Both the position numbers and the translations under genes were made by a program. A model generated the notes under the pieces. That model had not been told where the DNA came from, did no database searches, and saw only the letters and a program-made list of their open reading frames with translations. Below, piece by piece: positions 29,501-64,000 of a stretch of 64,000 bases of DNA (positions are counted from its first letter, which is position 1; each line of letters begins with the position of its first letter). The stretch is from Chiloscyllium plagiosum (taxonomy: Eukaryota). The stretch is taken from contig NC_057735.1 of NCBI RefSeq assembly GCF_004010195.1, forward strand, positions 11,349,577 to 11,413,576. The letters are read 5' to 3'.

Positions 29501-30270
29501 GTCAATGAAGGTAAGCATGCAGGTACAGCAGGTAGTGAAGAAGGCTAATAGCATGCTGGCCTTCATAACAAGAGGGATTGAGTATAGAAGCAAAGAGGTT
29601 CTTCTGCAGCCGTACAGGGCCCTGGTGAGACCACACCTGGAGTACTGTGTGCAGTTCTGGTCTCCAAATTTGAGGAAAGACATTCTGGCTATTGAGGGAG
29701 TGCAGCGTAGGTTCACGAGGTCAATTCCTGGAATGGCGGGACTACCTTACGCTGAAAGACTGGAGCGACCGGGCTTGTATACCCTTTTGAAGATTGAGAG
29801 GGGATATGATTGAGACATATAAGATTATTAAAGAATTGGACACTCAGAGGCAGGAAACATGTTTCAGCTGATGGGTGAGTGCCGAATGGTCTACCCCTTA
29901 AAAATACGGGGTAGACCATTTAGGACAGAGATGAGGAGAAACTTCTTCACCCAGAGAGTGGTGGCTGTGTGGAATGCTCTGCCCCGGAGGGCAGTGGAGG
30001 CCCAGTCTCTGGATTCATTTAAGAAAGATTTGGATGGAGCTCTCAAGGATAGTGGAATCAAGGGTTATGGAGATAAGGCAGGAACAGGATACTGATTAAG
30101 GATGATCAGCCATGATCATATTGAACGGTGGTGCAGGCTCGAAGGGCAGAATGGCCGACTCCTGCACCTATTGTCTATTGTCTATTGATGTTACCTAGTA
30201 TGGTGATGAAACATCTGAACACAAACCTTCAAGCTTATTGAGCTAAATTACGTACTTATCATCAACCTTC
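26575..30270. mobile_element. Second-family fold-back element with hammerhead motifs (probably Penelope-derived), split by two CR1 insertions
   Basis: 26575-26629 plus 26766-26875 is the reverse complement of 26985-27059 plus 30187-30270. Hammerhead core CTGATGA-T-GTTACC-cagtat-GGTGAC-GAAA on the minus strand at ~26768-26798. Confidence 0.65.
27060..30186 (+). mobile_element. CR1 LINE with ORF1 SGNH-esterase part and disrupted ORF2 (APE and RT)
   Basis: ORF1 has VIHVGTND...DGLHLN. ORF2 has [39 protein letters not shown] and KFADDTK. Tail (CTATTGT)n; internal deletion near 28415. Confidence 0.93.
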
Positions 30271-30974
30271 TCATAAAATGCTGAGTTTGTCAGTGTTAGG
30301 GAGGTGGTCAGCACCTTCCTATTGGCGATGCTCCATATGTGGTGCAAATGTTAACCTACTGTTCATTAACCCAAACATGAATGTTTCTGAGATGCGGCTT
30401 TAGGTATCATAAAAGTGTTGTGAATAAACATTCCCAATGTATGACGAAGAGAAGAGAGACTTATTTCTGACCTTCAGACAGAGACAGGATCATTGGTCAG
30501 GATGGTTGGGCCATATATGCTTTCTTGGCAATTCCTCTGGAGTGGGGAAGATGATTGACACAGAGTCCAAGAATAAGAAGAGAGAGAGAGAGAGATAGAG
30601 AGAAAGGAAGAAACAGGGGAGAGAAAGACAGAGGGAACCTGAAAGCAGCAGCATTGTACTAGCAAGATGTACAATAATTCGCCTCTAATTAGCATAACCA
30701 TTTTCTTTTGTCAAAATTGATTCTGGCCATCGGACAAATTTTCTTTTGTCTATCACTGACTTGTGTTTCCCAAGGAGCACGTGGTACTATATTTTCTGTA
30801 ATGCTGCCCTGATGCCAAGTTCAGCACCCTGGCTATTCAGCTCTTGTGCTGATGTCTCGGTCTGGGTGTCACAAAGACAGGAGCTGCACATTTATATGGC
30901 ATTGTAGGCACTCTTGTTACAGCTAACTTGTGAATGCTTTGCAATTTTTTTATATATATATATATATATAAATT

Positions 30975-32090
30975 TAACCCCCACACTACCGCCTAAGTGC
31001 GGTAGTGCTTATTTTTTCCCCAGCACCCATGGTGTGTGTGCAGGTGTGAGACACAGTGAGAGACACAAGGTGCACAAATCTTTATTCAACTTCTACCACC
31101 AGGAAGAAAGGAAACACCCGAGTGGCCAGTAACAAGCAGGGCCCTTTACATTGAAGGGCAATGCTGTGTGATCAAACAGTGAAGGGAAGGGCAGGGACTA
31201 AATCAAAATAGAGTTGGAGGGGGAAATAATGCACTCCACTCCCTGCGGCGCCGACCTCTCCCTGAACAACTCCAGGGTGTTGGTGGACACCGCGTGCTCC
31301 TTCTCCAAGGACACCTGGGCCCGAACATAACCGCGGAAGAGGGGCAGGCAGTCGGCCCTAACGACCCACTCCACGGCCCGCTGCCTCGACCTGTTTATGG
31401 CCAGTTTGGCCAGGCCCAGGAGCAGACCCACGAGGAGGTCTTCAGACCTGCCCTCCCTCCTCCGTACCGGGTGCCCAAAGATCAGGAGCGTGGGCCTGAA
31501 GTGCAACCAAAAGCAGAGGAGGAGGTTTTTGAGAAAATCAAAAAGGGAGTGCAAACGCCCACACCCAATATACACGTGATCCACGGACTCCACAGAACAA
31601 GCAGTTGTGCTGAGAGTCCTTGAACCACCGCAATCTACGGTTGCAGGGGACTGCTGCGTGCAGCACCCTCCACCCCAGATCCCGGAGAGAAAGGGGGAGG
31701 ACTCCCGCGTAGAGAGCCCTCCACTGGGGGTCCCCACCGCCCGGTGGCAAATGGGCACGCCAAGGCGTGTCCGGACGGTGGATGAGGGAGAAGAGGTGGA
31801 CGGTGTGCAGCAGCAGTCTATATAGGGCCCTCCGTTTTACATCCTTAAAAGGGACAAAATGAAAATTCCGGAGGTGGCTCAGGTTGTGAGGCACAGGCTC
31901 CCGCAGAGAAGTACGGGACCTTGGGGCCAATGTGAAATTCCGGCCGGGCTGGGGTGAGCGCGGACGGGATCCCACCGCACACCTGAGCATCCTCCAACTG
32001 GTGCACTACGTCGGGTCCGAACACCACCGTTTTAAGGCGTCGGATGGCGGTGGCCACGTACCGGACGCCTACTGCTGCGCTTTCCAATTT
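30975..32090 (-). mobile_element. Tx1-clade (L1-like) non-LTR retrotransposon 3' fragment, copy A
   Basis: ORF2 C-terminus LGWRVLHAAVPCN...CLFCG...ESVDHVYIGC (CCHC zinc knuckle)...LLGLAKLAI, followed by a 3' UTR with terminal hairpin CACTACCGC-ctaagt-GCGGTAGTG (30984-31007). Confidence 0.8.
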
Positions 32091-32109
32091 TAAATTCTGT
32101 CCGGGCTAC

Positions 32110-33127
32110 ACTCCTGTTTGTTTTTTTTTGTAGGGGAGGGTAGGGACTAAATCAAAACAGAATTGGAACACTCCTTTTTTTTTTTCTTTTATTAACCCCC
32201 ACACTACCACCTAAGTGCGGTAGTGCTTATTTTATCCCCAGCACCCATGGTGTGTGTGCAAGTGGGAGACACAGTGAAAGACACAAAGTGCACCAATATT
32301 TATTCAATTTCCACCACCAGAAAGATAGGAAAACACCCGGGTGGCCAGTGACAAACACTGCCCTTCACATCAAAGGGCAGTGCTGTGTGATCAAAACAGT
32401 GAAGGGGAGGGTAGGGACTAAATCAAAATAGAGTTGGAGGGAGAAGTGAAGCACTCCACTTTTTTTAAATTTAACCCCCACACTACCACCTAAGTGCAGT
32501 AGTGCCTATTTTTTCCCCCAGCACCCATGGTGTGTGTGTGCAGGGGTGAGACACAGTGAAAGACACAAAGTGCACAAATCTTTATTCAAATTCCACCACC
32601 AGGAACATTCCACGGACTCCACAGTGCCACAGAACAAGCAGTTGGGCTGGGAGTCCGTGAACCACCGCAATCTGCGGTTGCAGGGGGCTGCTGCGTGCAG
32701 CACCCTCCACCCCAGATCCCCGAGAGAAAGGGGGAGGACTCCCGCGTGGAGAGCCCTCCACTGGGGATCCCCACCGCCCGGTGGCAAATGGGCACGCCCA
32801 AGGCGTGTCCGGACATGGATGAGGGAGAAGAGGTGGACGGTGTGCAGCAGCAGTCTATATAGGGCCCGCCTTTTTACATCCTTAAAAGGGACAAAATGAA
32901 AATTCCGGAGGCGGCTCAGGTTGTGGGGCACAGGCTCCCGCGGGAAGTACGGGACCTTGGGGCCAATGTGAAATTCCGGCCGGGCTGAGGTGAGCGCGGA
33001 CGGGATCCCACCGCACACCTGAGCATCCTCCAACTGGTGCACTACGTCGGGTCCGAGCACCACCGTTTTAAGGCGTCGGATGGCGGTGGCCACGTACCGG
33101 ACGTCTACCGCTGCGTTTTCCAATTTT
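32110..33127 (-). mobile_element. Further Tx1-clade 3' fragments (short pieces 32132-32460; internally deleted copy C 32472-33127)
   Basis: Repeats of the same 3' UTR and hairpin, each with a T-run on the + strand. ORF 32506-33225 matches copy A, with a deletion junction at ~32605. Confidence 0.8.
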
Positions 33128-38335: not shown

Positions 38336-40627
38336 CTTTTATACCACTCAGCAAATTACCACTTAAATAAAGGAATTACATATAAGATCAGTAAAGTTTA
38401 TTCTGTCAGTTTAAGTTTTAGTTTACTTGTGCAACATGATAGATTCTTTATTGGCTAATTGCCTTGGACAGAATGTAGAGAGAGATGGGTTGGTATTGGT
38501 TAAAGGAATCCTGGCTCCTGCCTGATGGAATTGGTCCAAAGCCTAATGCCTTTTCTGTGACCTCATGTTTTTGGAGCAGGTCATTGATGAGGAGAGAGTC
38601 AGGAGGTTTGACCTCTCTACTGCAGAACACAGCCTGGCGGAGTGGTGGGTGGTTGGATCACTTTAGAAAATCAGGCAAGGTGGTGGTGGGTAAATATTTG
38701 AGACCAGCAAGAGCTATCATTCACTACTTCAACTGAAAAACAACTTTTTCAAATCCCCTTTCTTTCATTACTTTGAGTGGGTTGCATTGTAAGACAACAA
38801 GACATAGGAGCAGAAGTAGACCATTTAGCCCATCGATTCAGCTCCACATTCAGTGAGATTGTGGCTGATCCTCAACTCCACATTCCTGTCCTTTCCCCCA
38901 TAATCATTGATTCTATCACTGATTAAAAAGCTGCACATCTCAGCCTTGAATATACTTAATGATCCAGGCTCTACAGCAAAGAATTCCACAGATTCACAAC
39001 TCTCAGAATAAGGTCCTCCTCATCTCAGAACTAAGTTGGCCACCTCTTACTGAGATTGTGCCTTTTGGTCCTGGAAGGGGGACAGTGCCTCTCCACATCT
39101 ACCTTCAAGTACCCTAAGAACCTTGCATACATTTCAATAAAGTCACCTTTTAGCTTTCTAAACTCCACTGAGTATAACTGTGACCGACTCAGTTTTTCCC
39201 CCCCATAAGGCATCCCTTCTATGCTGGAGATCAACTTAATGCGCTTATCTGGATGACCTCCATTACCAGAATCTTTCAGATTAATCCCTTCAGGAAGAGG
39301 TGGATGCTGGTATAATTACATTGTTTAAAAGACACTTGGATAAGTACGTGAATAGGAAAAGTTGAGGGATATGAGCCAAGAGCAGGCAGATGGGACTAGT
39401 TTAGTTTGGGGATTATGGTTGGACCAAAGGATCTGTTTCCATGCTGTATGACACCATGACTTCATGATTCCTCAAAACCAAGGTAATTGTGTGACAATTG
39501 CATCACCTATTGAAAGTCTACAACTGCATGAGGGCCTTAGTGATGTCAAGTTTCTGGCAGTCTCCTAGACCATGCAGTTCAGACCCTGAAAGAAAATGAA
39601 GACCACCCACTTGTCAATGGGAGTTGAGACACCAGTGTCCTTTTAATCCAGCAGCCATCTTATCTGCTCAAAAGAAATGACAATTAGTCCCATTGAATAA
39701 CTCACATTCACTTTTCAAAACAAAATAGCCACTGAGTTAACTAGTGGGGCAAAGGTGTGTTAATTTTAAAATAATTTTGCTTTTAATTTTCTAAAGGAAA
39801 GAAAGGAGATACTCTGCCTAAATATAACTAAATTAATAAGGCTTTCAAGCTGAACACTGCACAGAAGTAACATGCAGTGAAACTTGCAAATGATGCATGT
39901 GAGTCTGGCTGTTCTTGTGTATCTCGAAACAATGCTCCAGTACAACCATTGTATTCATTTCCAGGTATTAAACAAACTGACCACTTACAAATTCAGCATG
40001 TAACCAGATCATTTCAGCCAGACCAGTCAGAGAATTTCCACCATGCCTATTTAATCACACAAGAGGTCTTGTCAAACCCACCATAGGTCAGATTATAAAA
40101 TGTTGTAAATCAATCTGCTAGGATATATTATGTTACACCTCAGTCACAGGTGAGACTTCCTTTATCCTCAGGTTCTGGGCACCACTTGTTATGGCAAGTG
40201 TTTAATACCTATCCCTAATTGCCCAGAGGGCAGTTAAGAGTTTTCCAGATCCACAGGAATATGGCTTTATAGTGGGCCAGACCAGGTAAGGATGACAGAT
40301 TTTCTTCCCTGAAGGACATTAGTCAACCAAATTATTTTTCCAACAATGGAAATTAGACCCTTAATATCCAGATTCATTATTGAATGAACTTTCACCATCT
40401 GCCACAGAGGGTCCCTGGAACATGAACAGTTTCTAGATTAACAGTCCAGTGATAATACCACTAGGCTATTGGCTCCATATTAACTTGAATACAGATCTTC
40501 AACACAATGATAGGAACATCACCATTGTCCCACAAGATGCTCGAAACCACATACCAAATGGTTGAGACATTACACCAGCAGGTTTTTTTCAAATCTTAAC
40601 ACAGCCCATTTCTTTCTGCCCTGACAG

Positions 40628-40957
40628 GATCATACGGAGTTATGGCACCAAATGAAGTGAACGGAAGGTTAGGAAGCTCCATCACTATCAACTGCCAGTA
40701 CAACATAGCAAGGAACAGAGATTCCGAGAAGTATTGGTGTAAGGGAAAGTGGAGATTTTCATGCACTATGTTGGCGTCCACTCAAAGAATGCAGCAGGAA
40801 AGACCCAGTAGACTGTTTATTATGGACAATCAAACCAATGGGGTATTTTCAGTAACAATGCAGCAATTATCGCTGGAAGATGCAGGATGGTATTGGTGTG
40901 GGATAATAAAGGAGGGCACTGATGAAATGGCTGATGTTAAATTGAATGTTCTCCAAG
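40628..40957 (+). CDS. Gene 2 Ig V domain D1 (CD300/pIgR-like)
   Basis: Acceptor tttctttctgccctgacag and donor CAAG|gtaagc; 330 nt, phase 1-1. GSSITINCQY...EKYWCKGKWRFSC...EDAGWYWCG with the C-x7-C pair. Confidence 0.93.
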
Positions 40958-43900
40958 GTAAGCTGAGTAATTAATAAGAGACCATAGACCATAAGAGACA
41001 GGAGCAGAAGTTAGGCCATTCAGCCCATAGAGACTGCTCTGCCATTCAATCATGGCTAATAAGTTTCTCAAGCCCATTCTCCCACTTTCTCCCTGTAACC
41101 CTTGAACCCTTTGACACTCAAGAACCTATCTACTTCAGTCTTAAAACATGCTCAATGACCTGGTCTCCACAGCCTTCTGTGGCAATGAATTCCATAGCTT
41201 CACCACTCTGGCTGAAGTTTCTCCTTCTCTCCATTCTAAAAGGTCTTCCCTTTGCTCTAAGGCTCCAGCCCATTCATTGACCGTTTATTCACTTCAAGCA
41301 CATTGTAAGAATTCCAATAACTGAACAATTCATTATTTCAGTTATCGGTTTAAACAGAAAAGGTTCTTACATTTGTTCAATTAAAAAAGGTTTAAAACAA
41401 GGATAGAGAATGCTGGAGAAACTCAGCAGGTCTGGTGGCATCTGTGAAGAGAGAAACAGATTCTTCAGAAAGTAAAGGTTCTTTGGACTTCAATTGTATA
41501 TGCAAGCTAAAATCAATACCCCACACATTTGAATGATGGAGTGGAAAAATCAGATTAAAAGAGTGCTACATGATTAAAGAGCAGATACAGTCAGTAATTA
41601 CGCAGAGAAAACCTTCCACAGAACTGAACTTTGAAAGATAAACAGGAAACACTGGTGCAGGAATACTGATGCACAAGAATAACAATGTGCATCAAGTTAG
41701 AGATGAGTTACAGCAGGAAACATTCAGCCCATCACAAGTACACTGGCTCTCTGAATGAGCAGTTTGTGTAATACCATTCCCTTGCAATCTTCCCACACAT
41801 TCTTCCTTTCCAGTTAATAATCCAACTCCTTCCTAAAAACCTCAATTGAACCTGGATCCAATGCACTTTCAGGCATCCCATTCCTGTTCTTTCATGGTGT
41901 ATAAATATTTGTGTCTATCCCCATTGCATTTCTCCCCCCCCCCCCCATTGACCTTAAATCAGTGGCCTGGCATTCTCACCACAAGTGGGACAGATTTTCC
42001 TTTATTTACTCTGGACAGTAATTTTGAACACATCTCTCAAATCTCCTGTCTCCACAGAAAAGTTGAGAGTTTAGCTCTATTTAAGTCCATAACTGAAGTT
42101 CATGCCTGAAGCCATTTATGACTTTCTGCACTCTGGTACTGCATTCACATAACTGTGGAATAAAGCATATTTATGGTTTGGTGTGGGAAGTGGAGTCAAC
42201 TAAGCAATGCAATGTAATGTAATTGATGAAAGCTGTCAGAACTTGTGATGTGAAGTAACATATTCCAGACAGCAGCTGGTATCTGCACAAAGTCCAGAGA
42301 CAAATAGAGGGAAGAATCATATGAAACAGTTTGAGAGAAGTTGGAAATTTGGTCAAATTCTCAAATACAGAGAAAGAACAAAAAAGCAAAAAAACTTTCA
42401 AACATACTCATCTGACTTGGCTTGGACATTGGAGAAAGTAAGAACTGCAGATGCTGGAGATTAGAGTCAGAGTGCAGTGCTGGAAAAGCACAGCAGGTCA
42501 GACAGCATCAGAGGTGCAGGTGAATCGGTGAAGGGCTTGGGTAACGTTGCTGTCTTGTGTGGACAGGGTAATGTAGACAGCCTTCAGTCCCCATGCTGAA
42601 GGTGATATTTCTTGTAAAGGAATAATCAGCTGATAGAGGTTCAATGAGCTGGCAGTTGTTGTGTTGCAAAGTTTTTAAAAGTACAAAATGTAAATAGAAA
42701 GTGATGACTAAGAAAAGCCAAAATGGAAACAGGGAAACAGATGTTAGGGAAGTTACTATGAGTAGGTCACATTTAGCTTCGACCTGCCATTTTGTGATTT
42801 CCACATGGTTCTTCTTTCCTCTCCCACTAATTTACCAGCTGCAGATTTGTGACTTTATTTTGGTTATAAGTGAAGCAAGAGATAGCCAAGATGGTTTAGT
42901 GTTCAAAGCAAGAGTAGTTCTGTAACTGTCCATGAGAAATGGGAACAGGAGTAGACCTTTCAGCCCCTGGAGTCTGTTCTGCCATTCAATAGGATTATGG
43001 CTAATCAGATATTCCTTAATCACTTTCCTATCTTTCTCCTACAACCCTTAATTCCCTCAAACCAAGAAATTCTCAACTTTAAGTGTACAGAAGTGCTCTG
43101 CTCCCACAGCTGTGGAAAGGAGTTTCCCCAATCCTAAGAGATTCCTCCTTATCTCAGGGGGAAGTTGATATCCCCTTATTCTGCAATGATTCATCTGGTC
43201 ATAGACTCATGAGGGGAACATCTCAGCATTTACCCTGTCAAGTCCCTTAAGAATCCTATATATTTCAAGGAAGATTTCATCTCTTTCTAAAAGTAGTGAG
43301 GAGTGTCCCAAGCTGTTTAGCCTTTGCTCATAAGACAGTCCTTCCATACTAGAGGGTCACCCTAGTGAATCCTCAACTTCATTGAATGAATATCTTTCCT
43401 TCAATAAGGGAGGAAAACTGCTCTAGATATGGTCTCACCAGCACCTTGTACAATTGCACTAAGACTTCTCTACTCTTGTATTCCCCATAAATACTGTCTT
43501 CCTCGGTGAATTTTAAAAATTGTCAATTCTAGAAATCTGAAAAACAGGAAAGGCTGAAAATAGTCAGCTTCAGCAGCATCTGCAAAAAAGAAATAGTTAA
43601 CTATTCAGATCTATGGCTTTAGAATTCTGATGGTCAACCTGAAATGAAAAAGGCCATTATCCCATCTCCTTACCTGTACACTGGCTATGGCCAACCAATT
43701 CCCTGAATTGAGATTCAGGATCTGTTTTAGAATTTTTTGGTTGCTTATTCCCTGCTTCCCTCACTATTGGCTAACAGCAGTTTTATGGTGTGCAGATGTA
43801 GAGTGAAAAACAAATCATAGTAAGACCTGCCAGACCCAGGGACAGTGCAGGTAGTAGACCCAAAAATAGTTAATTACCAAAGTCCTTTTTGGCACACAGT

Positions 43901-45979
43901 TCAAATGGAGTCTTCAAAATAGGAGTCCACTCCTGAAGGCAGCAAATGCACACCCCACAGGTGTGCAGTCTCCATGGAGTCCTGGCCCAGCCTTGGAAAA
44001 CCAGGCCCACTCACTGGAATATAGTACATTGTACTGGTGCAGTTAACTCAGGGGTTTGGTCCACTCCTGAAGCAGAAGTCTTCTCCCAAACTCAAGACAG
44101 CAAGTGCTCACCTCCCAGTGCACAGGTGTTCAATCTTTAGAGGCCTGGTCTTAGGCCTCCCCACAGGAACAGCTCCTCTGGTAAAAATGTATGTCTTCCA
44201 CAAGGGCTCAGTCCAAACTGGAAAAGCAGTGAGGATACATACAAAAAGACAGGAGTCCAAGGGCTAAGCCCTACCACAAAATTATCACTACTTTCTCCTT
44301 TGAGAAAAGGATAACAGGCTGTAACCAGCCAGTGAAACAATCCCCTAATGAGAACTGAGTTACACCTGAAACTGTGCATCAGGAGTTTGTCCTCACTAAA
44401 AAGGAATACCAGTTAAACTGGCAAAATAATTCAGCCAGTTCAGGAATCAAGGTTTCTCCCCTCCAAAAAAGACTGACTATAGCACCAGCCAGCACAGAGT
44501 CAGTCTCTGAAACTGAGGGGTCTCTGAATCTCCTGTTTATAATATTTTATTAACCAAGTTACAAAACAATTAAAAACTTACAGCTGTATACAACAGCAGT
44601 TTAAGGGAGAGCAAAGCCAGGCCCTGAACCCTACCACTCAGTTTACAGGGAGACGAGGACAAACCTCAAATCCCAGTTTCACATAAAAGACAATGACGTT
44701 TGTACATGAGAATACTGTTACATACAAAAGTGCTGACAATACAGACCCAGCAAGCCTGTCCCTCCCACTTTGACCACTCAGTCAGCCCACCCTACACCTT
44801 CCAGCTCAGTCCACCCCATGCCCTTTCTAGTTCAGTCCACCCTGACACCTTTTGACCACTAGGACAGCCTGCCCTGGTACCACCCAGTCAGGATGGCCTA
44901 CCCACCTTCTGGCTTCACTAACCACCCTCAGCACCTTTTGACCACCTCTGGGGCAGCCCACCCCAGTACCTGCCTGGGGTGACAGTGCTGAGGATGGCTA
45001 CTCGCCTTCTGGCTCTCGGTCTGCCGTTATGTACCATTGGGCTCTTACCCATGCACAATGCACCTCCGGCCAGTGGGCTATCCTGGCACACCTTCTGGCC
45101 TCTCTAGGACAGCCCATCCCCTTCCCTGGGAAGACAGGGTGCAGGGTAGCCCACAAGCCTTCTGGATCTCAGCCTGCCCCTACGCAACTTCTGGTGCTTG
45201 GCTGCTCCAACACCTTTCAACCACCTCTAGGACAGCCTGTCCTGATTACCCTCAGGTTGATGCACCTAGAATGGCCTACCCACCATCTGGCTCAGGGAGA
45301 CTGGCATCAGGGTGGCCTAGCCCTGGGTAGAGAGGGCAGCCTACCAACCTGCAGGTTCACAGGATGGCCTACCCACCCTCCAGCTCTTGGGGTGACAGCT
45401 TTCATTACGACCCATGAGCCTCCCAGCTCACAGTAAGGCCTGCAAGACCCAGGGACACAAGACAGTGCAGGTGATAGACCCAGGAACCACCACAATACAA
45501 TTAATCCACAAGAACAAACCAGAGTCCTTTCTGGTACACAGTCCAAATTCTTCAAAGTATAGAGTCCATTCCCAGAAATGGAGTCCACTCCAGTTTTGAG
45601 GTGCATTGTCCAAAATGGAGTCCACTTCTGAAGGCAGCAAATGCACACCCCACAGCACAGGTGTTCAGTCTTCATGGAGTCCTGGCCCAGCCTTGGAAAA
45701 CCAGGCCCACTCACAGGAACATAGTACAGGTGCAGTTAACTCAGGGGTTTGGTCCACTCCTGAAGGAAAGGTCTTCAGGAAGCTCTAGGATACAGCAAGT
45801 GCTCACCTCCCAGTACACACAGGTGTTCAATCTTCAGAGGCCCAGTCCCAGGGCTAGGCCACCCCACAGGAACAGCTCCTCTGGGGAAGTGCATGTCTTC
45901 CACAAGGGCTCAGTCCAAACACCAATAAAAAGAAGGCACATACAAAAAACTAGAGTCCAAGGGCTAAGCCCTACCACAA

Positions 45980-46865
45980 AGCTGGGTGGCAGGGTGAAAT
46001 GTGATGAGGATGTTAGGAGATTACAGGGTGACCTGGACAAGTTAAGTGAGTGGGCAGATGCAGTTTAATGTGGATAAATGTATGGTTATCCACTTTGGTA
46101 GCAAGAACAGGAAGGCAGACTACTACCTCAATGGAATCAATTTATGTAAAGGGGCAGTAGAGAGATCTGGGTGTTCTTGTACACCAGTCAATGAAGGCAA
46201 GCATGCAGGTACAGCAGGTAGTGAAAGTGGCTAATAGCATGCTGGCCTTCATAACAAGAGGAATGGAGTATAGAAGCAAAGAGATGCTTCTGCAGCTGTA
46301 CAGGGCCCTGGTGAGACCACACCTGGAGTACTGTGTGCAGTTCTGGTCTCCAAATTTGAGAAAAGACATTCTGGCTATTGAGGGAAAGCGTAGGTTCATG
46401 AGGTCAATTCCTGGAATGGCAGGATTACCTTACACTGAAAGACTGAAGCGACTGGGCTTGTATACCCTTGAGTTTCGAAGATTGAGAGGGGATCTGATTG
46501 AGACGTATAAGATTATGAAAGGATTGGACACTAACAGTAGGAAACATATTTCCACTGACGGGTGAGTGCCGAACCAGAGGGCACAGCTTAAAAATACGGG
46601 GTAGACCATTTAGGACAGAGCTCAGGAGAAACTTCACCTAGAGAGTGGTGGCTGTGTGGAATGCTCTGCCCCAGAGAGCAGTGGAGGCCCACTCTGGATT
46701 CATTTAAGAAGGAGTTGGATAGAGCTCTCAAAGATAGTGGAATCAAGGGTTATGGAGATAAGGCAGGAACAGGATACTGATTAGGAATGATCAGGCATGA
46801 TCATATTGAATGGCGGTGCAGGCTCGAAGGGCTGAATGGCCTACTCCTGCACCTATTGTCTATGT
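45980..46865 (+). mobile_element. CR1 3' fragment inserted in the array, same subfamily as 27060-30186
   Basis: Highly similar to 29282-30186; interrupts cctaccacaaa/aatt, which is contiguous at ~44270-44284. Confidence 0.9.
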
Positions 46866-49326
46866 CAAAATTAACTTGTCCTTTTCTCAAAGGAGAGAAA
46901 AGAGTAACAAAGGCTGTAACCAGCCAGTGAAACCATCACCCCCTAATGAGAACTGAATTACACTTGAAACATTATGTGCATCAGGAGTTTAACAATCAGC
47001 CCTCACTAAAAAGAATGCCAGTTACCTGGCTAATTCAGCCAGTCCAGGAACCAGGTTTTCCCCTCCCTAAAAAGGGAAGCAGAAACTAACAGTAACATAC
47101 TGACTGTAGCCCAGCCAGCATAGAGTCAGTCCCCTAAACTGAGGGGACTCTGAATCTCCTGTTTATAATATTTTATTAAACAAATTAAAAACAGTTAACA
47201 TTTACAGCTGTTTACCACAGCATTTTTACAAGGGAGAGCAGCAGCAAAGCCAGGCCCCAAACCCTACCATTCAACCAGTTTACAGGAATGGAGGACAAAC
47301 CACAAATCCCAGTTTCAAATATAAAGAGACAGCAACAATGACCTTTATACATAAGACAATCCAGTTACATAAGTGCAGACAATACAGACCCAGCAAACCC
47401 CCATCCCTCCCACCTTCTGGCCACTCTTAGACAGCCTACCCCTACATGCCTTCTGGCTCTCGATCCACCCTATGCCCCTTCCAGTTCTCAGCCTGCCCTA
47501 GTACCCACCCAGGGTGGGAGTGGTCAGGATGGCCTACCCACCTTCACTAACCACCCTCAGCACCTTTCAACCACCTCTGGGGCAGCCCACCCCAGTACCT
47601 GCCCAGGGTGACATGCTGAGGACAGCTACCCACCTTCTGGCTCTCGGTCTGTCCCTACATACCATTTGTCTCACCCACCCTGATGCACCACTGGCCTATC
47701 CTGGCACATCTTCCAGCCACCTCTAGGACAGCTCATCCTTCCCTGGGAAAACAACGTGCAAGGTAGCCCAGACGCCTTCTGGATCTCAGCCCACCCCTAC
47801 ACACCACCTGGTGCTTGGCTGCTCTGACATCTTTCGACCACCTCTAGGACAGCCCTTCCCGATTACCCCTTAGAACAGCTTACCCACCATCTGGCTCTTG
47901 GGACAACTGGCATCAGGGTGGCCTACCCACCCTCTGGCTTTCAGGACAGACTACCAACCTTCAGGTTCACAGAATGGCCTACCCACCCTTCAGCTCTCGG
48001 GGTGAGCTTTCAGGATGACCCATGAGCCTCCCAGCTCACAGTAAGGCCTGCCAGACCCAGGGACACAAGACAGTGCAGGTGATAGACCCAGGAACCACCA
48101 CAATACAGTTAATTACCAAAAACAAAGAAAGCCCTTTCTGGTACAAAGTCAAAATATCAAGTCCATTTCCAGGAAGAGTCCACTCCAATATACAATGTGC
48201 ATTGCCAGAAATAGAGTCCATTGCCAAAACAGAGTCCACAACCAAGGGCAGAGTCCACTCCTGAAGGCAGCAAATGCACACCCCACAGGTGTGCAGTCCC
48301 CATGGAGTCCTAGCCCAGCCTTGGAAAGCCAGGCCCACTCTGGAACAGTGCATTATACAGGTGCAGTTAACATACAGGTTTGGTCCACTCCCAAAGGAAA
48401 GGTGTTCTTGCAAACTCCAGGATACAGCAAGTGCCCTCCTCCCAGCACACACAGGTGTTCAATCTTCAGAGGCCCAGTCCCAGGCCTCCCCACAGGAATA
48501 GCTCCTCTGCTAGAGTGTCTTCCACAAGAGCTCAGTCCAAACACCAATAAAAAAGTGAAGACATACAAAAAAAGAAAGCTAGAGTCCAAGGGCTTATTAT
48601 CCTTTTCTCAAAAAGAGTAAAAAGAGAAACATAAAGGCTGTAACCAGCCAGTGAAACAACAATCCCCTAATGAGAATTGAGCTACACCTGAAACACTATG
48701 TGCATCAGGAGTTTAACACTGTCATCCCTAAAAGGAATAAAAAAGTGAAGACATACAAAAAAAGAAAGCTAGAGTCCAAGGGCTTATTATCCTTTTCTCA
48801 AAAAGAGTAAAAAGAGAAACAAAGGCTGTAACCAGCCAGTGAAACAACAATCCCCTAATGAGAATTGAGCTACACCTGAAACACTATGTGCATCAGGAGT
48901 TTAACACTGTCATCCCTAAAAGGAATACCAGTTAACAAACTGGCTAAATAATTCAGCCAGCTCAGGAACCAGATTTCCACCCCAGAAAAAAGGAAGCCAA
49001 AACCAACAGTAACATACTGACTGTAGCCCAACCAACATAGAGTCAGTCCCCAAAACTCTGAATCTCCTGCTTATTTTTTATTTTTTTTTATTTTATTAAA
49101 CAAGTTACAAAACAGTTTACAAAAAACATTGACAGCTGTACACAAAAGACAGCAGTTTTACAAGGGAGGGGAGCAGCAAAGCTAGGCCCCGAACCCTACC
49201 GTTCAACCATTTTACAGGGAGAGGAGGACAAACCTCAAATCCCAGTTCCATGTGTGACAAGACAGTGACAATGACATTTATACATTAGACAATACCGTTA
49301 CATACAAAAGTGCAGACAATACAGAC

Positions 49327-50144
49327 NNNNNNNNNNNNNNNNNNNNNNNNNNNNNNNNNNNNNNNNNNNNNNNNNNNNNNNNNNNNNNNNNNNNNNNNNN
49401 NNNNNNNNNNNNNNNNNNNNNNNNNNNNNNNNNNNNNNNNNNNNNNNNNNNNNNNNNNNNNNNNNNNNNNNNNNNNNNNNNNNNNNNNNNNNNNNNNNNN
49501 NNNNNNNNNNNNNNNNNNNNNNNNNNNNNNNNNNNNNNNNNNNNNNNNNNNNNNNNNNNNNNNNNNNNNNNNNNNNNNNNNNNNNNNNNNNNNNNNNNNN
49601 NNNNNNNNNNNNNNNNNNNNNNNNNNNNNNNNNNNNNNNNNNNNNNNNNNNNNNNNNNNNNNNNNNNNNNNNNNNNNNNNNNNNNNNNNNNNNNNNNNNN
49701 NNNNNNNNNNNNNNNNNNNNNNNNNNNNNNNNNNNNNNNNNNNNNNNNNNNNNNNNNNNNNNNNNNNNNNNNNNNNNNNNNNNNNNNNNNNNNNNNNNNN
49801 NNNNNNNNNNNNNNNNNNNNNNNNNNNNNNNNNNNNNNNNNNNNNNNNNNNNNNNNNNNNNNNNNNNNNNNNNNNNNNNNNNNNNNNNNNNNNNNNNNNN
49901 NNNNNNNNNNNNNNNNNNNNNNNNNNNNNNNNNNNNNNNNNNNNNNNNNNNNNNNNNNNNNNNNNNNNNNNNNNNNNNNNNNNNNNNNNNNNNNNNNNNN
50001 NNNNNNNNNNNNNNNNNNNNNNNNNNNNNNNNNNNNNNNNNNNNNNNNNNNNNNNNNNNNNNNNNNNNNNNNNNNNNNNNNNNNNNNNNNNNNNNNNNNN
50101 NNNNNNNNNNNNNNNNNNNNNNNNNNNNNNNNNNNNNNNNNNNN
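49327..50144. other. Assembly gap (a second gap is at 11108-11239)
   Basis: Runs of N. Confidence 1.
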
Positions 50145-50419
50145 TTCTCAGAAAGAGGAGAGCGTAACACACAGGCTGTAACCAACCAGTGAAACAACAA
50201 CCCCCTAATGAGAACTGAGTTACACCTGAAACACATTATGTGCATCAGGAGTTTAACAAATCAGTCCTCACTAAAAGGAATGCCAGTTAACAAACTGGCT
50301 AAATAATTCAGCCAGTTCAGGAACCAGATTTCCACCCCAGAAAAAAGGAAGCCAAAACCAACAGTAACATACTGACTGTAGCCCAACCAACATAGAGTCA
50401 GTCCCCAAAACTCTGAATC

Positions 50420-50510
50420 TCCTGCTTATATCAGTCACTCAGTGCTCCCTGATTGGCCCAGGTTAACAACCCCAATCAACCCCAATGAGATCCACCTGGT
50501 TCCAATCGCC
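50420..50510 (-). promoter_or_regulatory. CCAAT plus TATA promoter-like (LTR-type) segment at the head of the array, antisense to gene 2
   Basis: Minus strand reads GGGCCAATCAGGGAGCACTGAGTGACTGATATAAGCAGGAG; CCAAT at 50452-50456 and TATAA at 50426-50430. Confidence 0.5.
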
Positions 50511-50526
50511 ATAATAACTAACTTGA

Positions 50527-50632
50527 TACCGCACTTAGGTGGTAGTGTGAGGGTTAAAAAAAAGTAAAAAAGAAAAAAAAAGAAAAAAAATTAAACAGAA
50601 AAAAAAGGGAAAAAAAATAAAATAAAAAATAA
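50527..50632 (+). mobile_element. Extreme 3' end of the Tx1-clade element with long A-rich tail
   Basis: taccgcacttaggtggtagtgtgagggtt matches the terminus at 32192-32225 (reverse complement) and is followed by about 75 nt of A-rich sequence. Confidence 0.75.
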
Positions 50633-51260
50633 ACAGGAGAAAACGGATTAAACAGAGGATTTAAATACAGACAACGGATTAACAAACCTTTCTGCTTTGA
50701 GATGCCATCTTACTGTTGTTTATTGACTGGCTCCTGTATTCCATCAATGTTGTGTTCCAGTCTGCGATGGGATTCAGCTGACACCAGACTTGGGCACAGT
50801 GCCCTCTTGTGTCAGTCTGTCTGTAATTCCAGTGTTCAGTTTGAACATCATACAAGAAAAAAAAAGGAAAAAAAAGAAAGAAAAAAAAATAACTAACTTG
50901 ATATTTGCATATACTGTCATCTGCTGAGCATTTCCAGGATTTTCTATTTTAGGAAAGAAGTGAACTGTTTTGACCAGAAGCAAAATAAATTATTTAATAC
51001 TGTGCATAAGATTTTTGTTTAACTGGTAAAGCCAATAAGAACTTGAACAATCTTGGAAAAAAATAATTTTAATCATTGGTGGAACAAAAGGAATGAATGA
51101 CGGGAATAATTACCTTCAGATAACCAATATGGGAATGATTGGCTATATTATTCACTTCCTGTGCTATAAATTTCCTAGATTCTGCAATACTTGTCACTGT
51201 TTTACTAACATGTATTCTGCTTGATGTTAAGTGGTTATATATTGTTCTTTATTCTTGCAG

Positions 51261-51584
51261 CTGGATTGACTGGGCTAAGACAAGTGTATGGAACTTTAGG
51301 AGATGGTGTCACTGTTGAATGCCAGTATCAAGTGCCATATTACAAGAGCCATGGAAAATACCTGTGTAAGGGTTCAGAGAGGAAATCGTGTATTGTGATA
51401 GCTAGAACTCAAAAACAGAATGCAAACAGCAGTGGAAGGATATCAGCTGTGGATAACCAGAACAGTGGAGTGTTTGCAGTGACCATTACCCAATTAACGA
51501 TGGAGGATGAGGGACTCTACTGGTGTGGAATCACAATGTTTGGATATGACAGAATGGATCCTTTACAACTGAACATTTTTGAAC
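51261..51584 (+). CDS. Gene 2 Ig V domain D2 (CD300/pIgR-like)
   Basis: TACTAAC branch-point match at 51203-51209, acceptor tttattcttgcag, donor GAAC|gtaaga; 324 nt, phase 1-1. VTVECQY...KYLCKGSERKSC...EDEGLYWCG. Placed in gene 2 because no TM or leader exon was found between D1 and D2. Confidence 0.9.
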
Positions 51585-54500
51585 GTAAGATACATGTTGA
51601 ATTCTTCTTATAGAGTCAAAGAGATGTACAGCACGGAAACAGACCCTTCGGTCCAACTCATCCATGCCGATCAGAAATCCTAACCTGATCTAGTTCCATT
51701 TGCCAGTATTTGGCCCATATCCCTCTAAACCCTTTCTATTCATATACCCATCCAGATGCCTATTAAATGTTGGAATTGTCCCAGCCTCCACCACATCCTC
51801 TGGCAGCTCATTCCATACACGTACCACCCTCTGCTTGAAAAGGGTGCCACTGAAGTCCCTTTTATATCTTTCTCCTCTCACCCTGAAGCTATGCCCTCTC
51901 GTTCTGGACTCCCACCCCAGGGAAAAGACCTTGTCTGTTTACCCTATCTGTACCCCTCATAATTTTATAAACCTCTATAAGGTCACCGCTCAGCCTCCAA
52001 CACTCTAGGAAAGCAGTTTCTACATATGTAAAGTACTAGATATTCTGCTGAGAATAATGGTTGGAACAGATATTATTTGTTTGTAATTAATCTGTTGAGA
52101 TTTTGTGCCAGAAAATGGATCTACTGGGCTCTGTCTCAGTCACGAGCAAACACCATGTTCTGTCTAGTGAGTCAGGCATGACGTAGAAGCAGAGAAAGAG
52201 GCCAATGTTCTTCTCCCTACCCCAAGCCTTGGACCCGATAATGCTTTTCTTATCAGCAAAATCTAGGCAGGGTGTGTCCGGAATGCGTAAAATAGCTTCC
52301 CAAACATTACATGAGCTATATCTCCACAGAGACTAGCTGTTGATGCAATTTGAGTCTTATAACGCAATGACCGATGAGGAAAGTGCCCCAGTGGCACCAA
52401 AGTTCAAAAGGAGAACAAAAAGCCAAACTCATTTATTTCTTTATTAATAGTTTATAAGCTTTGACAGCAAGGTGAGTATTTATTTCCCATCTCACATTGC
52501 CCTTGCGAAGCTGGTAGTGAGACACTTCCCTGTAATGTGACAATCCGAATGGTATAGGTACACACACAGTGCCATTGGAGAAGGAATTTCAAAGGTTTGA
52601 TCCAGTGACAGTGAAGGAATTGTGATATAGTTTCAAGTCAGGATGGTGTGTGTTTTCAGTTAAGAGTCAATCATTTCATTGTAGGTCTGGACACATAGGT
52701 AGACCAGACCAAGTAAGGAGAGCAGATTTCTTGCCTAAAGGGATATTAGTGATGGGTTTTTACAACAAGGCTACCATTATGCTATCATCCTGACTTGGAA
52801 TTACATCCTCATTCCTTCGGTGTCACTGGGTCAAATCCTGGAGTTCCTTTCCTCCTGGCATTGTGGGTCAATTTACAGCACATGGATTGTCGCGGTTAAA
52901 AGTAGCAGCTCACACTACCTGCTCAAGAGGCTTAGGGCAATAAATACTGGCCAGCCAGCAACCTCCACATCGCACAAGTGAAAATGAAGACTGTAAAGAT
53001 TTCAGATTTCAATTCTTGCCGTTGTGGGATTGTGAAGCTATGTCTCCGGCATATCAGGCTTGGTGTCTGGATTATTAATCCAGCAATATTGGCACTACAT
53101 GAGCACCTCTCCAGTACCACAAAAATTGATTATCTTAAAGATAGAAAAAATGTCCCAAGGTTGTACAGAGGAGCGTAACCATATAAATGTTGGCAGCATA
53201 CAGATGCTGGAGTGTAATGTCGACACAACTAAAGTAGAAGCAGACTTTGTCACCAAGTTATATATTACAACAAGTGGCTACAGGTTTGATCAGAGGCAGA
53301 TTTGAAGGAGCATCTGCAAGGGAGAGAGAAAAGTGGAAGGTTTTAAGGGTAGGATTGTAGAGGGTAAGCTCTTGGCAGTTGAGGACACCATTGCCAAAGA
53401 TGGCGTGGGTATAGCTCTCAGATTTTAGGAAGGAATGAAGCACAATTGCCTGAGAGATGTTCTTTTAAGGCCACTGTTCAGATAACCTGTTAGGACAAAT
53501 GGGAACATTGCTTACCCTGTTTCATGTGCTGAATGTTTGACACGAAGATACTTGACAAGAGGAGAAGTATTTATTTCTACAATACCTCGCTGTAGTTAGA
53601 AGTGTCTCTGCTGATGTAAACAATCTGGCAGATGACTTTACTTCGCAGACTGGCTTAATTGCAATTTTGGACAATCTCATTTCCTTAACTTATCCTCCTC
53701 AAAATTACTTTAAAATGGCAAAATGATCAGTACTCTAGTTAGTTTGTAATCAATGTCATTTGGTGTGAATTTTACTAATACACTTGTCTCATATTTAGTA
53801 TCTAATATCGCTGGGTTCTTCACCCATGCCAGAAGTGTAGCAGAGTGGGATGCAGAGTGACAATGTCTGACTAATGATGTTTCTCCTAAATACTTTATTG
53901 CATTTTTTTCTGACGACCTTAGATTAATGGCCCTTATTTGTGGACTTTTCCACAAATGGAAATACTTTCTCCACTTTTATTTGATAAAACACCTTTGTAG
54001 TTTGAAAGAAAAATTTGAATTGAGTAAATATTTATGTTAAGTATAGAACAGACTGGGGATTTTTTTTAGCTGAAGGTTTAATACTTAAATTGAATTAATT
54101 TCCTTTAAAGTTCAAGCTAACAATCTTATCTATTTTGTCATTACGATCAGGTGTATGATAATGTATAACTGACATGAGGATGTAGGCATTGTCAGATCCT
54201 TATGGCTTTAATGTAATTTAGCATGAATTCTGCACAGGGAGTCATCACAATCAAATCTGCAATGATTTACAGCTAAATTGTTAATTAATTTGGCACCATT
54301 CGCATTTGTCGCTGACACTTTTCAACTGTTTGTTATTTGAAGGATCCACTGAAGTGTACATCAGACATGGTTTCTTCAGTTATCCTGAAGACTATAGAGT
54401 AAAAGTAAAATTCAATCTAAATCAAATGCAGGCACAACATTGCTGCAAACCAAATCAAGTATGAACAACATTATTTTTCCAAACTTCTTGCTGGTGATCC

Positions 54501-62784: not shown

Positions 62785-64000
62785 TAGTCACTGACGCTGG
62801 GAATGGTCAGAGAGTGAGGGTCAGTGTGTTACGGTGGAAATGATCAGAGAATGAGGGTCAGTGTGTGCCCCTGGGAATGGTCAGAGAGTGAGGTTCAGTG
62901 TGTGACAGTGGGAATGGTCAAAGAGTGAGGTTCAGTGTGTGACCCTGGGAGTGGTCAGACAGTGAGGGTCAGTGTGTGACCATGGGAATGGTCAGGGAGT
63001 GTGGGTCAGTGTGTTACGGTGGAGATGCGCAGAGAATGAGGGTCAGTTTGTAATCCTGGGAATGGCCAGAGAGTGAGTGTCAGTATCTGACCCTGGAAAT
63101 AGTCAGAGAGAGAGGGTCGGTGTGTGACAGTGGGTATGGTCAGAGAGTGAGGTTCAGTGTGTGACGCTGGGAATGGTTAGAGAATGAGAGTCAGTCACTG
63201 ACCCTTGTAATGGTCAGAGAGCAAGGGTCAGTGTGTGACCCTGGGAATGGTCAGAGAGTGATGGTAAGTGTGTGACTCTGGGAATGGTCAGAGAGTGAAG
63301 GTCAGTGTGTGACCCTGGGAATGGTCAGAGAGTGAAGTTCAGTGTCTGACGCTGTGAATGGTTAGAGAATGAGAGTCAGTCACTGACCCTGGTAATGGTC
63401 AGAGAGTGAGGGTCAGTGTGTGACCCTGGGAATGGTCAGAGAGTGAGGATCGGTCACTGACCCTGGGAATTATCAGAAAGTGAGGGTCAGTGTGTGACCC
63501 TGGGAATGGTCAGAGAGTGAGGGTCAGACACTGACCCTGGGAATGGTCAGAGAGTGAGGGTCAGTGTATGACCCTGGGAATGGTCAGAGAGGGAAGGTCA
63601 CTGTGTGACCCTGGGAATGGTCAGAGAGTGAGGGTCAGTGTGTGACCCTGGGAATGATCAGAGAGTGAGGGTCGGTCACTGACCCTGGGAATGGTCAGAG
63701 AGTGAGGGTCAGTCACTGACCCTGGGAATGGTCAGAGAGTGAGGATCAGTTTGTGACGCTGGTAATGGTCAGAGAGTGAGGGTCAGTGAGTGACACTGGG
63801 AATGGTTAGAGAGTGAAGGTCAGTCACTGACCCTGTAAATGGTCAGAGAGTGAGGGTCAGTGTGTCACCCTGGGAATGATCAGAGAATGAAGTTCAGTCA
63901 CTGATCCTGTGAATGGTCAGAGAGTGAGTTTCAGTCACTGATACTGGGAATGGTCAGAGAGTGAGGGTCAGTAATTGACCCTGTGAACGGTCAGAGAGTG
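62785..64000. repeat. 37-bp minisatellite (GGGAATGGTCAGAGAGTGAGGGTCAGTGTGTGACCCT)n running off the window end
   Basis: Period 37 (for example gggaatgg at 63243 and 63280); roughly 33 units. Confidence 0.95.

Follow-up and report, generated by a model that had tools for sequence, protein, structure and literature searches.

A non-coding poly(A) retroposon stacked at the TATA box of a Gypsy-type LTR in Chiloscyllium plagiosum, and its likely Tx1-clade LINE partner

An array of four units in an intron of a pIgR-like gene

The window, i.e., the whole 64,000-nucleotide stretch analyzed here (Chiloscyllium plagiosum, assembly GCF_004010195.1, contig NC_057735.1, positions 11,349,577 to 11,413,576), contains a pIgR-like gene, one intron of which carries in antisense an array of four repeat units (A to D), each joined at ATAA(A/G)CAGGAG (Table 1). 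The exons on either side of this intron encode consecutive V-set domains and were placed with a 653-aa homologue (P0002). As they match its residues 314-429 and 427-537, they are not its first two domains; the first-pass annotation, which located the array antisense in a "D1-D2 intron", was thus right about orientation and consecutive domains but not about which domains these are. An antigen-receptor reading of "D1-D2" was rejected, with no recombination signals found and the exons being V-set domains of a pIgR-like gene.

Table 1 Features of the window discussed in the text
Feature	Coordinates	Strand	Remarks
Stack of 5'-truncated Tx1-clade LINE copies (likely mobiliser)	30950..33120	-	One ACAAACAGGAG junction at 32121
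V-set Ig exon upstream of the intron	40600..40974	+	PF07686; 88% to P0002 residues 314-433
Unit D, 3'-truncated	43815..44541	-	Without poly(A) signal
Unit C, complete, with an unrelated RT fragment inserted in it	44542..47167	-	
LINE RT fragment (0.9 kb) inside unit C	about 45976..46876	+	Frame 46161-46565
Unit B, complete	47168..49075	-	188-bp internal tandem duplication 48546-48927
Unit A, youngest	49076..50430	-	AATAAA + A tail; 818-N assembly gap 49327-50144
TATA-box target motif TATAAGCAGGAG	50419..50430	-	Recurs at 49075, 47167 and 44541 as target duplications
U3 half of Gypsy-type LTR (promoter side of the target)	50431..50513	-	Start ~50513; CCAAT box 50456-50447
V-set Ig exon downstream of the intron (next exon)	51209..51613	+	PF07686; 98% to P0002 residues 427-537

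Minus-strand units joined at a TATA-like motif, the first of them opened by a CCAAT, had already been described in the first-pass annotation, and we find both the three junctions and the CCAAT box, the latter behind an LTR-type start. The accompanying claim that every unit ends in AATAAA plus a tail running into the next one holds for A, B, and C (AATAAA at 49099, 47179, and 44553, respectively) but not for D, behind whose end (~43815) there is neither a poly(A) signal nor an LTR R/U5 remainder. A long A tail is seen at the A/B junction only; B and C end in AATAAAATAT and pass directly into TATAAACAGGAG. A full unit measures ~1.87 kb (1803-nt body plus ~70 nt head) instead of the 1.7 kb given before, and the units are, as had been stated, diverged and sub-repeated: tails differ by 16.1% (A-B) and 17.2% (B-C), and the ggatggcctacccac sub-repeat occurs six times with up to two mismatches as part of a diverged repeat of ~100-nt period in the G-rich half. 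Nearest-neighbour distances in the tail alignment are 0.018 for unit A, 0.081 for B, and 0.123 for C. The tail of unit A is 96-100% identical to its best matches among 40 scored candidates, and its first 160 nt are 98-100% identical to the head of B, with 75-92% identity beyond. The LINE RT fragment inside unit C, putatively of CR1 type, shows 89.6% identity to positions 29278-30178 of the window.

A dispersed retroposon that targets an LTR TATA box

The element is dispersed in the genome, with 63 matches among 2908 first-look candidates, and its exact head pattern was matched 74 times as opposed to none for the reversed control, which together exclude chance; a young subfamily exists at 96-100% identity. 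In the majority sequence of 29 full-length bodies, the longest sense stop-free frame is 119 aa and the longest ATG frame 59 aa, neither reverse transcriptase nor endonuclease is encoded, and four frames taken from the array had no Pfam match, in agreement with the earlier description of units without ORF and of a non-autonomous element. The body is composite and includes a G-rich, diverged tandem repeat. An Rfam search over 43700-50900 (E up to 1) gave no tRNA, 7SL, 5S, U1/U2, or ribozyme match, and no known structured RNA scored in the unit at E < 0.6. A hairpin leader was considered as a defining feature and rejected: the heads of unit C and of copy L173 fold better than all of 200 shuffles (z about -4), but unit A has z +1.0, and across 10 sequences z ranges from -4.2 to +1.0, with six within 2 SD of the shuffles. 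The element is a non-coding, non-autonomous poly(A) retroposon of ~1.9 kb. It does not belong to the SINE/SINEU class, whose members are under about 500 bp, as its head matches an LTR and no small-RNA match was obtained from Rfam; nor is it an LTR or the internal part of an LTR element, given that only its first ~70 nt match the LTR, which it interrupts, and that it ends in AATAAA/poly(A).

Of the young copies, 27 could be evaluated; every one is 5'-truncated, and 14-23-nt target duplications flank 23 of them, off-target copies included. These truncations and duplications, together with the A tails, show that the element moves by target-primed reverse transcription (TPRT), as had been proposed. 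Dispersed copies also share the downstream motif expected of them: 109 of 156 element 3' ends (from loci mostly picked by head or body) run into the target motif, compared with 57 of 1972 50-nt background bins, and TATAAGCAGGAG is duplicated around insertions at other genome loci too. Read-through into TATAAACAGG plus poly(A) occurs at 14 of the 156 ends. An initial count of target specificity (17 on target, 10 off, 2 unscored) was dropped since its loose motif matches 18% of background bins, and so was a count of LINE 3' ends (4/10, with 10 loci lacking a scorable end and one false positive); both were replaced by a strand-controlled test of LTR context within 1.5 kb. By this test, 16 of 28 tail-selected young loci lie in same-strand LTR context versus 0/28 for the opposite strand, and 12 lack LTR context.

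As its target, the element uses the TATA box of a family of Gypsy-type LTRs (40 scored matches, from 1313 first-look candidates), which is also the source of the element's head. Hence the idea of insertion into the TATA motif of the element's own head was correct as to the motif, but the primary target is the LTR, from which the head derives. Empty LTR copies run from TG to CA and contain TATA and AATAAA; some LTR copies are followed by a TGG primer-binding site and by frames resembling gag/pol, and RT_RNaseH lies downstream of one LTR. The same TATA box is struck by a Tx1-clade LINE, by truncated copies, and by tRNA-type SINEs. Each insertion duplicates ~14-20 nt starting at TATAAACAGGAG and so leaves a fresh target on either side of itself, with the result that independent copies stack head to tail.

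The LINE stack in the window is 45% identical to Xenopus Tx1 ORF2 over 128 aa, and the C-terminal half of the LINE ORF2 reaches 45% over 593 aa (E 2.8e-140). With an RVT_1 domain and an APE-like N-terminus (L1 endonuclease structures, E 5.5e-06), an ORF2 of APE and RT closest to Tx1 places this LINE, by sequence comparison, in the Tx1 clade. Its loci lie in LTR context in 7/20 cases versus 0/20 on the opposite strand; this value and the 16/28 of the element exceed Kojima's target-preference criterion of > 20% of flanks, albeit in a small sample and a 1.5-kb window. A composite leader could be aligned across three element copies, one short variant, and three LINE copies; it is present in 8/109 heads, and the other heads share LTR-derived sequence only. 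No 3' similarity was detected between the element and the L144 LINE (blastn and tblastx, best E 0.025-0.42). Descent from this LINE by internal deletion (SIDE or HAL1 type) is accordingly not supported, and the partner is assigned by target and leader only. Based on the common site, the similar duplications, and the shared leader, we consider that the element is likely mobilised by the endonuclease and RT of a Tx1-clade LINE; this may also be a member of a different Tx1 family.

Probable promoter carriage and the order of copies

A TATA-proximal variant of the U3 (GGAAAGCCC...GACTGA) precedes the element head in 17 of 18 genome-wide matches by eye (13/18 by script), and none of these 18 is an empty LTR; the common U3 variant is found before a head in 3 of 30 examined (of 45 matches). 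Nine of the 18 are new loci, with heads in eight. Likewise, the variant stands before 14/22 heads versus 3/82 other U3 junctions. Some copies have the structure head, proximal U3, TATA, and head again (nine exact head-U3 junctions were seen), and one such double-head copy (L293) has the common U3 variant. Given that the variant travels with heads and that head-U3-head copies exist, it is likely, judging from sequence, that the promoter is contained in the element RNA, whose start would then not simply lie 25-30 nt past it. The spare promoter may be weak, as the carried CCAAT reads ACAAT in several double-head copies.

Our preferred reading, which we regard as probable, is that of a TPRT passenger at the TATA box of a Gypsy-type LTR, moved via a Tx1-clade LINE, with target-like RNA ends and LTR-driven masters. 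Insertion at the LTR TATA box proceeds by TPRT, likely with LINE endonuclease and RT. The RNA would have target-like sequence at both ends, because the head is LTR-derived, one subfamily has its composite leader in common with the LINE, head-U3-TATA-head copies occur, and read-through into TATAAACAGG is seen at some 3' ends. The nicked strand would be bound by the 3' end of this RNA, whereas base pairing of its 5' end would overwrite the proximal promoter of the target or the head of a resident unit (compare the 160 nt common to A and B). Master copies are predicted to be transcribed from the LTR promoter in front of them, and a double head would supply the daughter copy with a spare CCAAT/TATA segment. 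Because the preceding unit has a poly(A) signal, units further down would be separated from the promoter and not co-transcribed.

A rather unlikely alternative is that the element is transcribed from an internal promoter of its own, or by read-through of upstream host or LTR-element transcripts; the LTR would then serve only as a safe landing site present in many copies, and long 5' extensions would account for the U3 variant. Insertions in LTRs with a primer-binding site behind (4/12), off-target copies, and reads from both strands would agree with this, but the transferred U3 stops near -45, with distal U3 of mixed type 1 and type 2 at the variant loci, and the same head-U3 junction recurs at at least nine loci. 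Single-cell poly(A) data yielded 407 of 12.96 million reads in one dataset and none in a second; at the tail most of the depth comes from one strand, in the middle from the opposite one, without start or end peaks, and these reads match priming in host pre-mRNA equally, as oligo-dT priming there would give the same pattern.

In the first-pass annotation, the RNA started 25-30 nt past the adjacent TATA (50426), every new copy landed directly behind the promoter, and the units of an array shared it. This we consider improbable. In its favour, an initiator-like TCA can be read off at TATA+28 to +30 in both LTR types, and 6/109 heads (three loci, including A and B) join at AG +28, i.e., where a TATA-driven start would fall. 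However, 87/109 heads keep +21 to +30, type-2 LTR targets acquired a type-1 head from +13 on (L017, L150, L317, L322, and L324), the U3 variant moves with the element, and units A, B, and C each have their own poly(A) signal. As most full-length heads hold sequence upstream of the TATA-given start, such a start appears to fit a minority class only, A and B among them.

The order of copies speaks for part of that proposal. Using nearest-neighbour distance in a 221-column tail alignment as an age proxy (pairs being non-independent and subfamilies unevenly sampled), the 5' unit is younger in 35/46 pairs, and in 25-26/35 once ascertainment-prone pairs are removed; first versus last units gave the same order in 24/32 arrays. 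New copies are hence biased towards the promoter end, but at ~75% this is not true of every copy, the older one being in front in 11/46 pairs. Neighbouring units differ by a median of 13.6% versus 13.5% between loci, and no pair (0/46) is below 5%. Stacking by independent insertions, as the earlier note had it, is thus borne out: neighbours are no closer than copies at different loci, and neither a plain satellite or local tandem duplication nor a part of an LTR element is at hand. Only over the 30 nt before GACTGACTC do neighbouring heads show a significant excess of similarity (0.81 versus 0.70, p 2e-5, 40 pairs); past +100 there is none, so the 160-nt match of A and B is an upper-end case. 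That the element hitch-hikes in an LTR copied by LTR retrotransposition, or that arrays are local tandem duplications, can be dismissed as highly improbable despite the constant position in the LTR and the shared A/B head, since the host LTRs are diverged and of different subfamilies, 5'-truncated copies have their own target duplications, and neighbours are no closer than random copies.

Going beyond the TPRT passenger that we prefer, we tentatively postulate a promoter-less retroposon that parasitises the LTR promoter and might renew itself through a spare CCAAT/TATA and overwritten targets, its pole position silencing older copies. If true, arrays would be age-ordered queues with the newest copy alone expressible. 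Age-ordered arrays preserve the succession of insertions at a single site, and the 5' junctions offer numerous natural cases of second-strand resolution driven by homology.

Relation to known systems

No paper describing this element was found in the text covered by our literature searches. The closest published system is that of the crocodilian SINEUs and Tx1-Mar LINEs (Kojima 2015, PMC4494074), where retroposons (SINEU-1/2/3) and Tx1 LINEs likewise prefer the same transposon target, with tandem insertion, common 5' heads, and no common 3' tail, as here. SINEUs have a U1/U2 snRNA head and are < 500 bp, in contrast to the target-LTR head, ~1.9 kb, and TATA-box site of our element, and PMC4494074, as far as it was available, describes neither array polarity nor carriage of a promoter segment for them. 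How promoter-less Tx1 passengers are transcribed was left open there, with transcription of SINEUs from the flanking target put forward as a possibility. This idea becomes directly testable here: insertion is into a canonical CCAAT/TATA LTR, and the upstream reach of the RNA can be read from diagnostic U3 variants. Crocodilian Tx1 families that prefer LTR retrotransposons are also described (Tx1-8_Crp and Tx1-4_AMi); their target alignments (supplements of PMC4494074) may bear on novelty, our comparison being with the text description.

R2 and its non-autonomous SIDEs (PMC3414825, PMC6530143) resemble ours in combining a non-autonomous element, a fixed multicopy target, and 3' read-through of the target; in the parts of these papers available, they depend on the target co-transcript, and 3' target read-through improves priming. 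Unlike SIDEs, which are internally deleted and retain a 5' ribozyme as well as the 3' end of the LINE, the element shares no 3' end with the L144 LINE, has no Rfam ribozyme match, and inserts into an LTR promoter of Pol II type. SVA and Sadhu, likened by description only, are similarly ~1-2 kb, non-coding, poly(A)-bearing, and LINE-mobilised, and the composite body of our element with its G-rich tandem repeat adds to the likeness, but the available text of PMC4494074 does not describe them as site-specific or stacking. Tx1L of Xenopus laevis (ORF2 P0008; PMC4494074), to which the partner LINE is related as given above, also inserts site-specifically into another transposon; there a LINE enters the piggyBac-type Tx1D, and here a non-coding passenger enters an LTR. 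Tx1-type targeting of other transposons is thereby extended to a passenger that is long, does not code for protein, and lands on a promoter of Pol II type.

The element family and its mode of insertion

The array opens with an LTR-type U3 (the promoter half of the LTR), behind which units A, B, C and D follow as stacked copies of the ~1.9-kb poly(A) retroposon (the element). Unit A is interrupted by an 818-N assembly gap, unit B carries an internal 188-bp duplication, unit C is split by an inserted 0.9-kb RT fragment, and unit D is 3'-truncated, with no LTR remainder following the cut. The whole lies antisense in an intron bounded by consecutive V-set exons of a pIgR-like gene, whose closest homologue is a bamboo shark protein.

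Features of the array and other window features (window coordinates)
Feature	Position	Strand
Array: U3, then units A, B, C, D	43815-50513	minus
CCAAT of U3	50456	minus
TATAAGCAGGAG motif behind U3	50430	minus
TATAAGCAGGAG motif repeated at unit joints	49075, 47167, 44541	minus
Insertion adjoining the LTR start (short, A-tailed Tx1 3' tail; ~220-nt A-tailed piece)	50514-50902	plus
14-nt direct repeat flanking this insertion	50514 and 50889	
ATAAACAGGAG junction within this insertion	50628	
LINE fragments	30950-33120	
Further V-set exon, similar to domain 1 of the pIgR-like homologue and 40 kb upstream of the intron with the array	791-1201	plus
Tandem repeat (37-bp unit, at least 32.7 copies), continuing past the window end	62792-64000	

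With the body of unit B (the unit without its ~70-nt LTR-derived head) as query, the genome search yielded 2908 first-look candidates and 63 matches, of which the best, among the 40 candidates scored, reach 74-81% identity. The tail (3' part) of unit A is 96-100% identical to its 40 scored candidates, so that a young subfamily exists; the dispersed copies that the first-pass annotation proposed to examine are present. The majority sequence of 29 full-length bodies (1803 nt) is T-rich at both ends and G-rich in the middle, where a diverged ~100-nt repeat lies. Its longest sense frames are 59 aa (from ATG) and 119 aa (stop-free), with a stop-free frame of 210 aa on the antisense strand, and the earlier view that the units hold no recognisable ORF agrees with the short sense ATG frame. 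The tail search sampled 29 loci besides the window, of which 27 were scorable (one lacked flank and one duplicated another locus). All 27 copies are 5'-truncated and 23 have flanking duplications of 14-23 nt (one mismatch tolerated, off-target copies included), as target-primed reverse transcription, the mode originally proposed, would produce. We consider it highly probable that the element is a target-specific non-autonomous retroposon.

In eight further loci the target is occupied by more diverged sequences (74-84%) related to the element's 3' part, which may represent sister families. An unusual head junction, with a gap adjoining, recurs identically at two loci located on different chromosomes; these may have arisen by recent duplication or be duplicated in the assembly.

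Independence and polarity of stacking

Array growth was assessed in 80 stretches of 9.9 kb fetched around heads and bodies. Median tail divergence was 13.6% within 46 adjacent pairs (32 loci) and 13.5% between loci (4789 pairs), and none of the 46 fell below 5%; as neighbours are as divergent as copies from different loci, the units represent independent insertions. When age was approximated by how far a unit is from its nearest copies elsewhere, the younger member was the 5' one in 35 of 46 adjacent pairs (p = 5e-4 in a binomial test, on pairs that are not independent), and the first unit was younger than the last in 24 of 32 arrays. When 11 pairs with a pattern-selected unit as 5' member were dropped as an ascertainment control, the 5' unit was still younger in 25-26 of 35 (p = 0.006-0.017). 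Within the window these distances rise from A (0.018) through B (0.081) to C (0.123). The suggestion that new copies land behind the promoter thus holds as a bias and fails as a rule, 11 of the 46 pairs having the opposite order. Units A and B are 98-100% identical over their first 160 nt and divergent beyond, as expected if A inserted in front of B with a homology-resolved 5' end; across loci, neighbours usually share only the first ~40 nt of the head.

The LTR target and the probable ends of the element RNA

The window U3 retrieved ~225-bp elements with TG..CA ends, CCAAT, TATAAACAGGAG and AATAAA, either empty or with the TATA box filled by LINE fragments, truncated elements or tRNA-type SINEs. 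A U5-end pattern had 278 genome matches (control pattern, 0); of 12 examined, most continue into a TGG primer-site-like stretch, several into gag/pol-like frames, and four have an occupied TATA site. An RT_RNaseH domain was detected downstream of one LTR and, together with similarity to Gypsy elements, leads us to presume a Gypsy family. Within 1.5 kb, LTR sequence lies on the same strand at 16 of the 28 element loci selected by tail and at 7 of the 20 LINE loci (opposite strand, 0 in both), so that targeting is strong and not exclusive; the proposed insertion at the TATA motif stands.

At nine loci, short A-tailed elements (60-200 nt, at ~position 2500 of the oriented loci) built of the LTR-derived head, often with ATAACCAGGAG, are stacked at the shared target and are possibly head transcripts polyadenylated prematurely. 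Four loci have SINE copies, which we take to be tRNA-type, at the identical TATA motif, suggesting a LINE relaxed in its choice of cargo.

The U3 variant GGAAAGCCC ... GACTGA precedes 14 of 22 full heads versus 3 of 82 other U3 junctions, with diagnostic sites beside it at 11/22 versus 9/82 and 4/22 versus 2/82. An exact genome-wide search found this variant 18 times (nine already sampled, nine new), followed by head and body in 13 (script) or by a head in 17 (by eye), with heads at eight of the nine new loci, no empty LTRs among the 18 and distal U3 of mixed type. The common variant had 45 matches; of 30 examined, three held the element and at least nine were empty (Fisher p = 1.6e-5 between variants, script classes). 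Six of the 18 are internal, running from head through U3 (from ~-45) and TATA into a second head, and the exact head-U3 junction occurs at nine loci, two with an A tail right behind the U3 piece. The simplest reading is that the master RNA would carry the proximal promoter segment of the LTR, which, on insertion behind a U3, would pair with and overwrite the target's own; in its entirety, this mechanism is tentative and rather doubtful. Heads joining at TATA+28, where a TATA-driven start would fall, number 6 of 109 at only three loci, units A and B among them. The start predicted 25-30 nt past the adjacent TATA fits these six and not the remaining heads, and loss of a short stretch between two AG could also account for such joints.

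Among 156 distinct element 3' ends, 57 pass straight into the target motif, 38 reach it through an A tail, 14 show TATAAACAGG followed by poly(A), and the remaining 47 lack a strict motif match, many being degenerate targets. The 14 suggest that cleavage may occur within the downstream duplication, which would make the RNA end target-like; for R2Ol, PMC6530143 describes increased insertion efficiency through such 3' read-through. Use of one shared promoter by the units is hypothetical, and the poly(A) signals of units A, B and C speak against downstream units being co-transcribed. Of two single-cell poly(A) runs, one placed 407 reads on a young copy, from both strands and lacking any peak at a start or an end, and the other placed 0.

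A candidate mobiliser and related systems

The LINE fragments of the window belong to a family with 13328 genome candidates. A near full-length copy, with an APE-like start and RVT_1, is 45% identical to Xenopus Tx1 ORF2 over 593 aa, and its 5' end, likewise in other LINE copies, is LTR-derived. A composite leader, made up of type-2 LTR, a T-rich linker and a type-1-like segment, is common to the LINE and one element subfamily (8 of 109 heads). The 3' ends of element and LINE proved unrelated on comparison, so that at this end the element differs from an internally deleted LINE; we thus infer, as the likely arrangement, that the Tx1 LINE mobilises the element in trans.

The element also differs from SINEs and SINEUs in its length and in lacking a small-RNA head (Rfam search). 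No description of this family was found in the literature searched. The principle of its targeting is already known, since PMC4494074 (Kojima 2015) describes crocodilian SINEU passengers and Tx1-Mar LINEs with a common transposon target, tandem insertion and shared 5' heads, as well as two Tx1 families preferring LTR retrotransposons, and proposes transcription from the flanking target.

At six loci part of the 3' UTR of the LINE itself stands in front of full-length LINE 5' ends; its point of fusion with the LTR-derived leader is identical in several loci.
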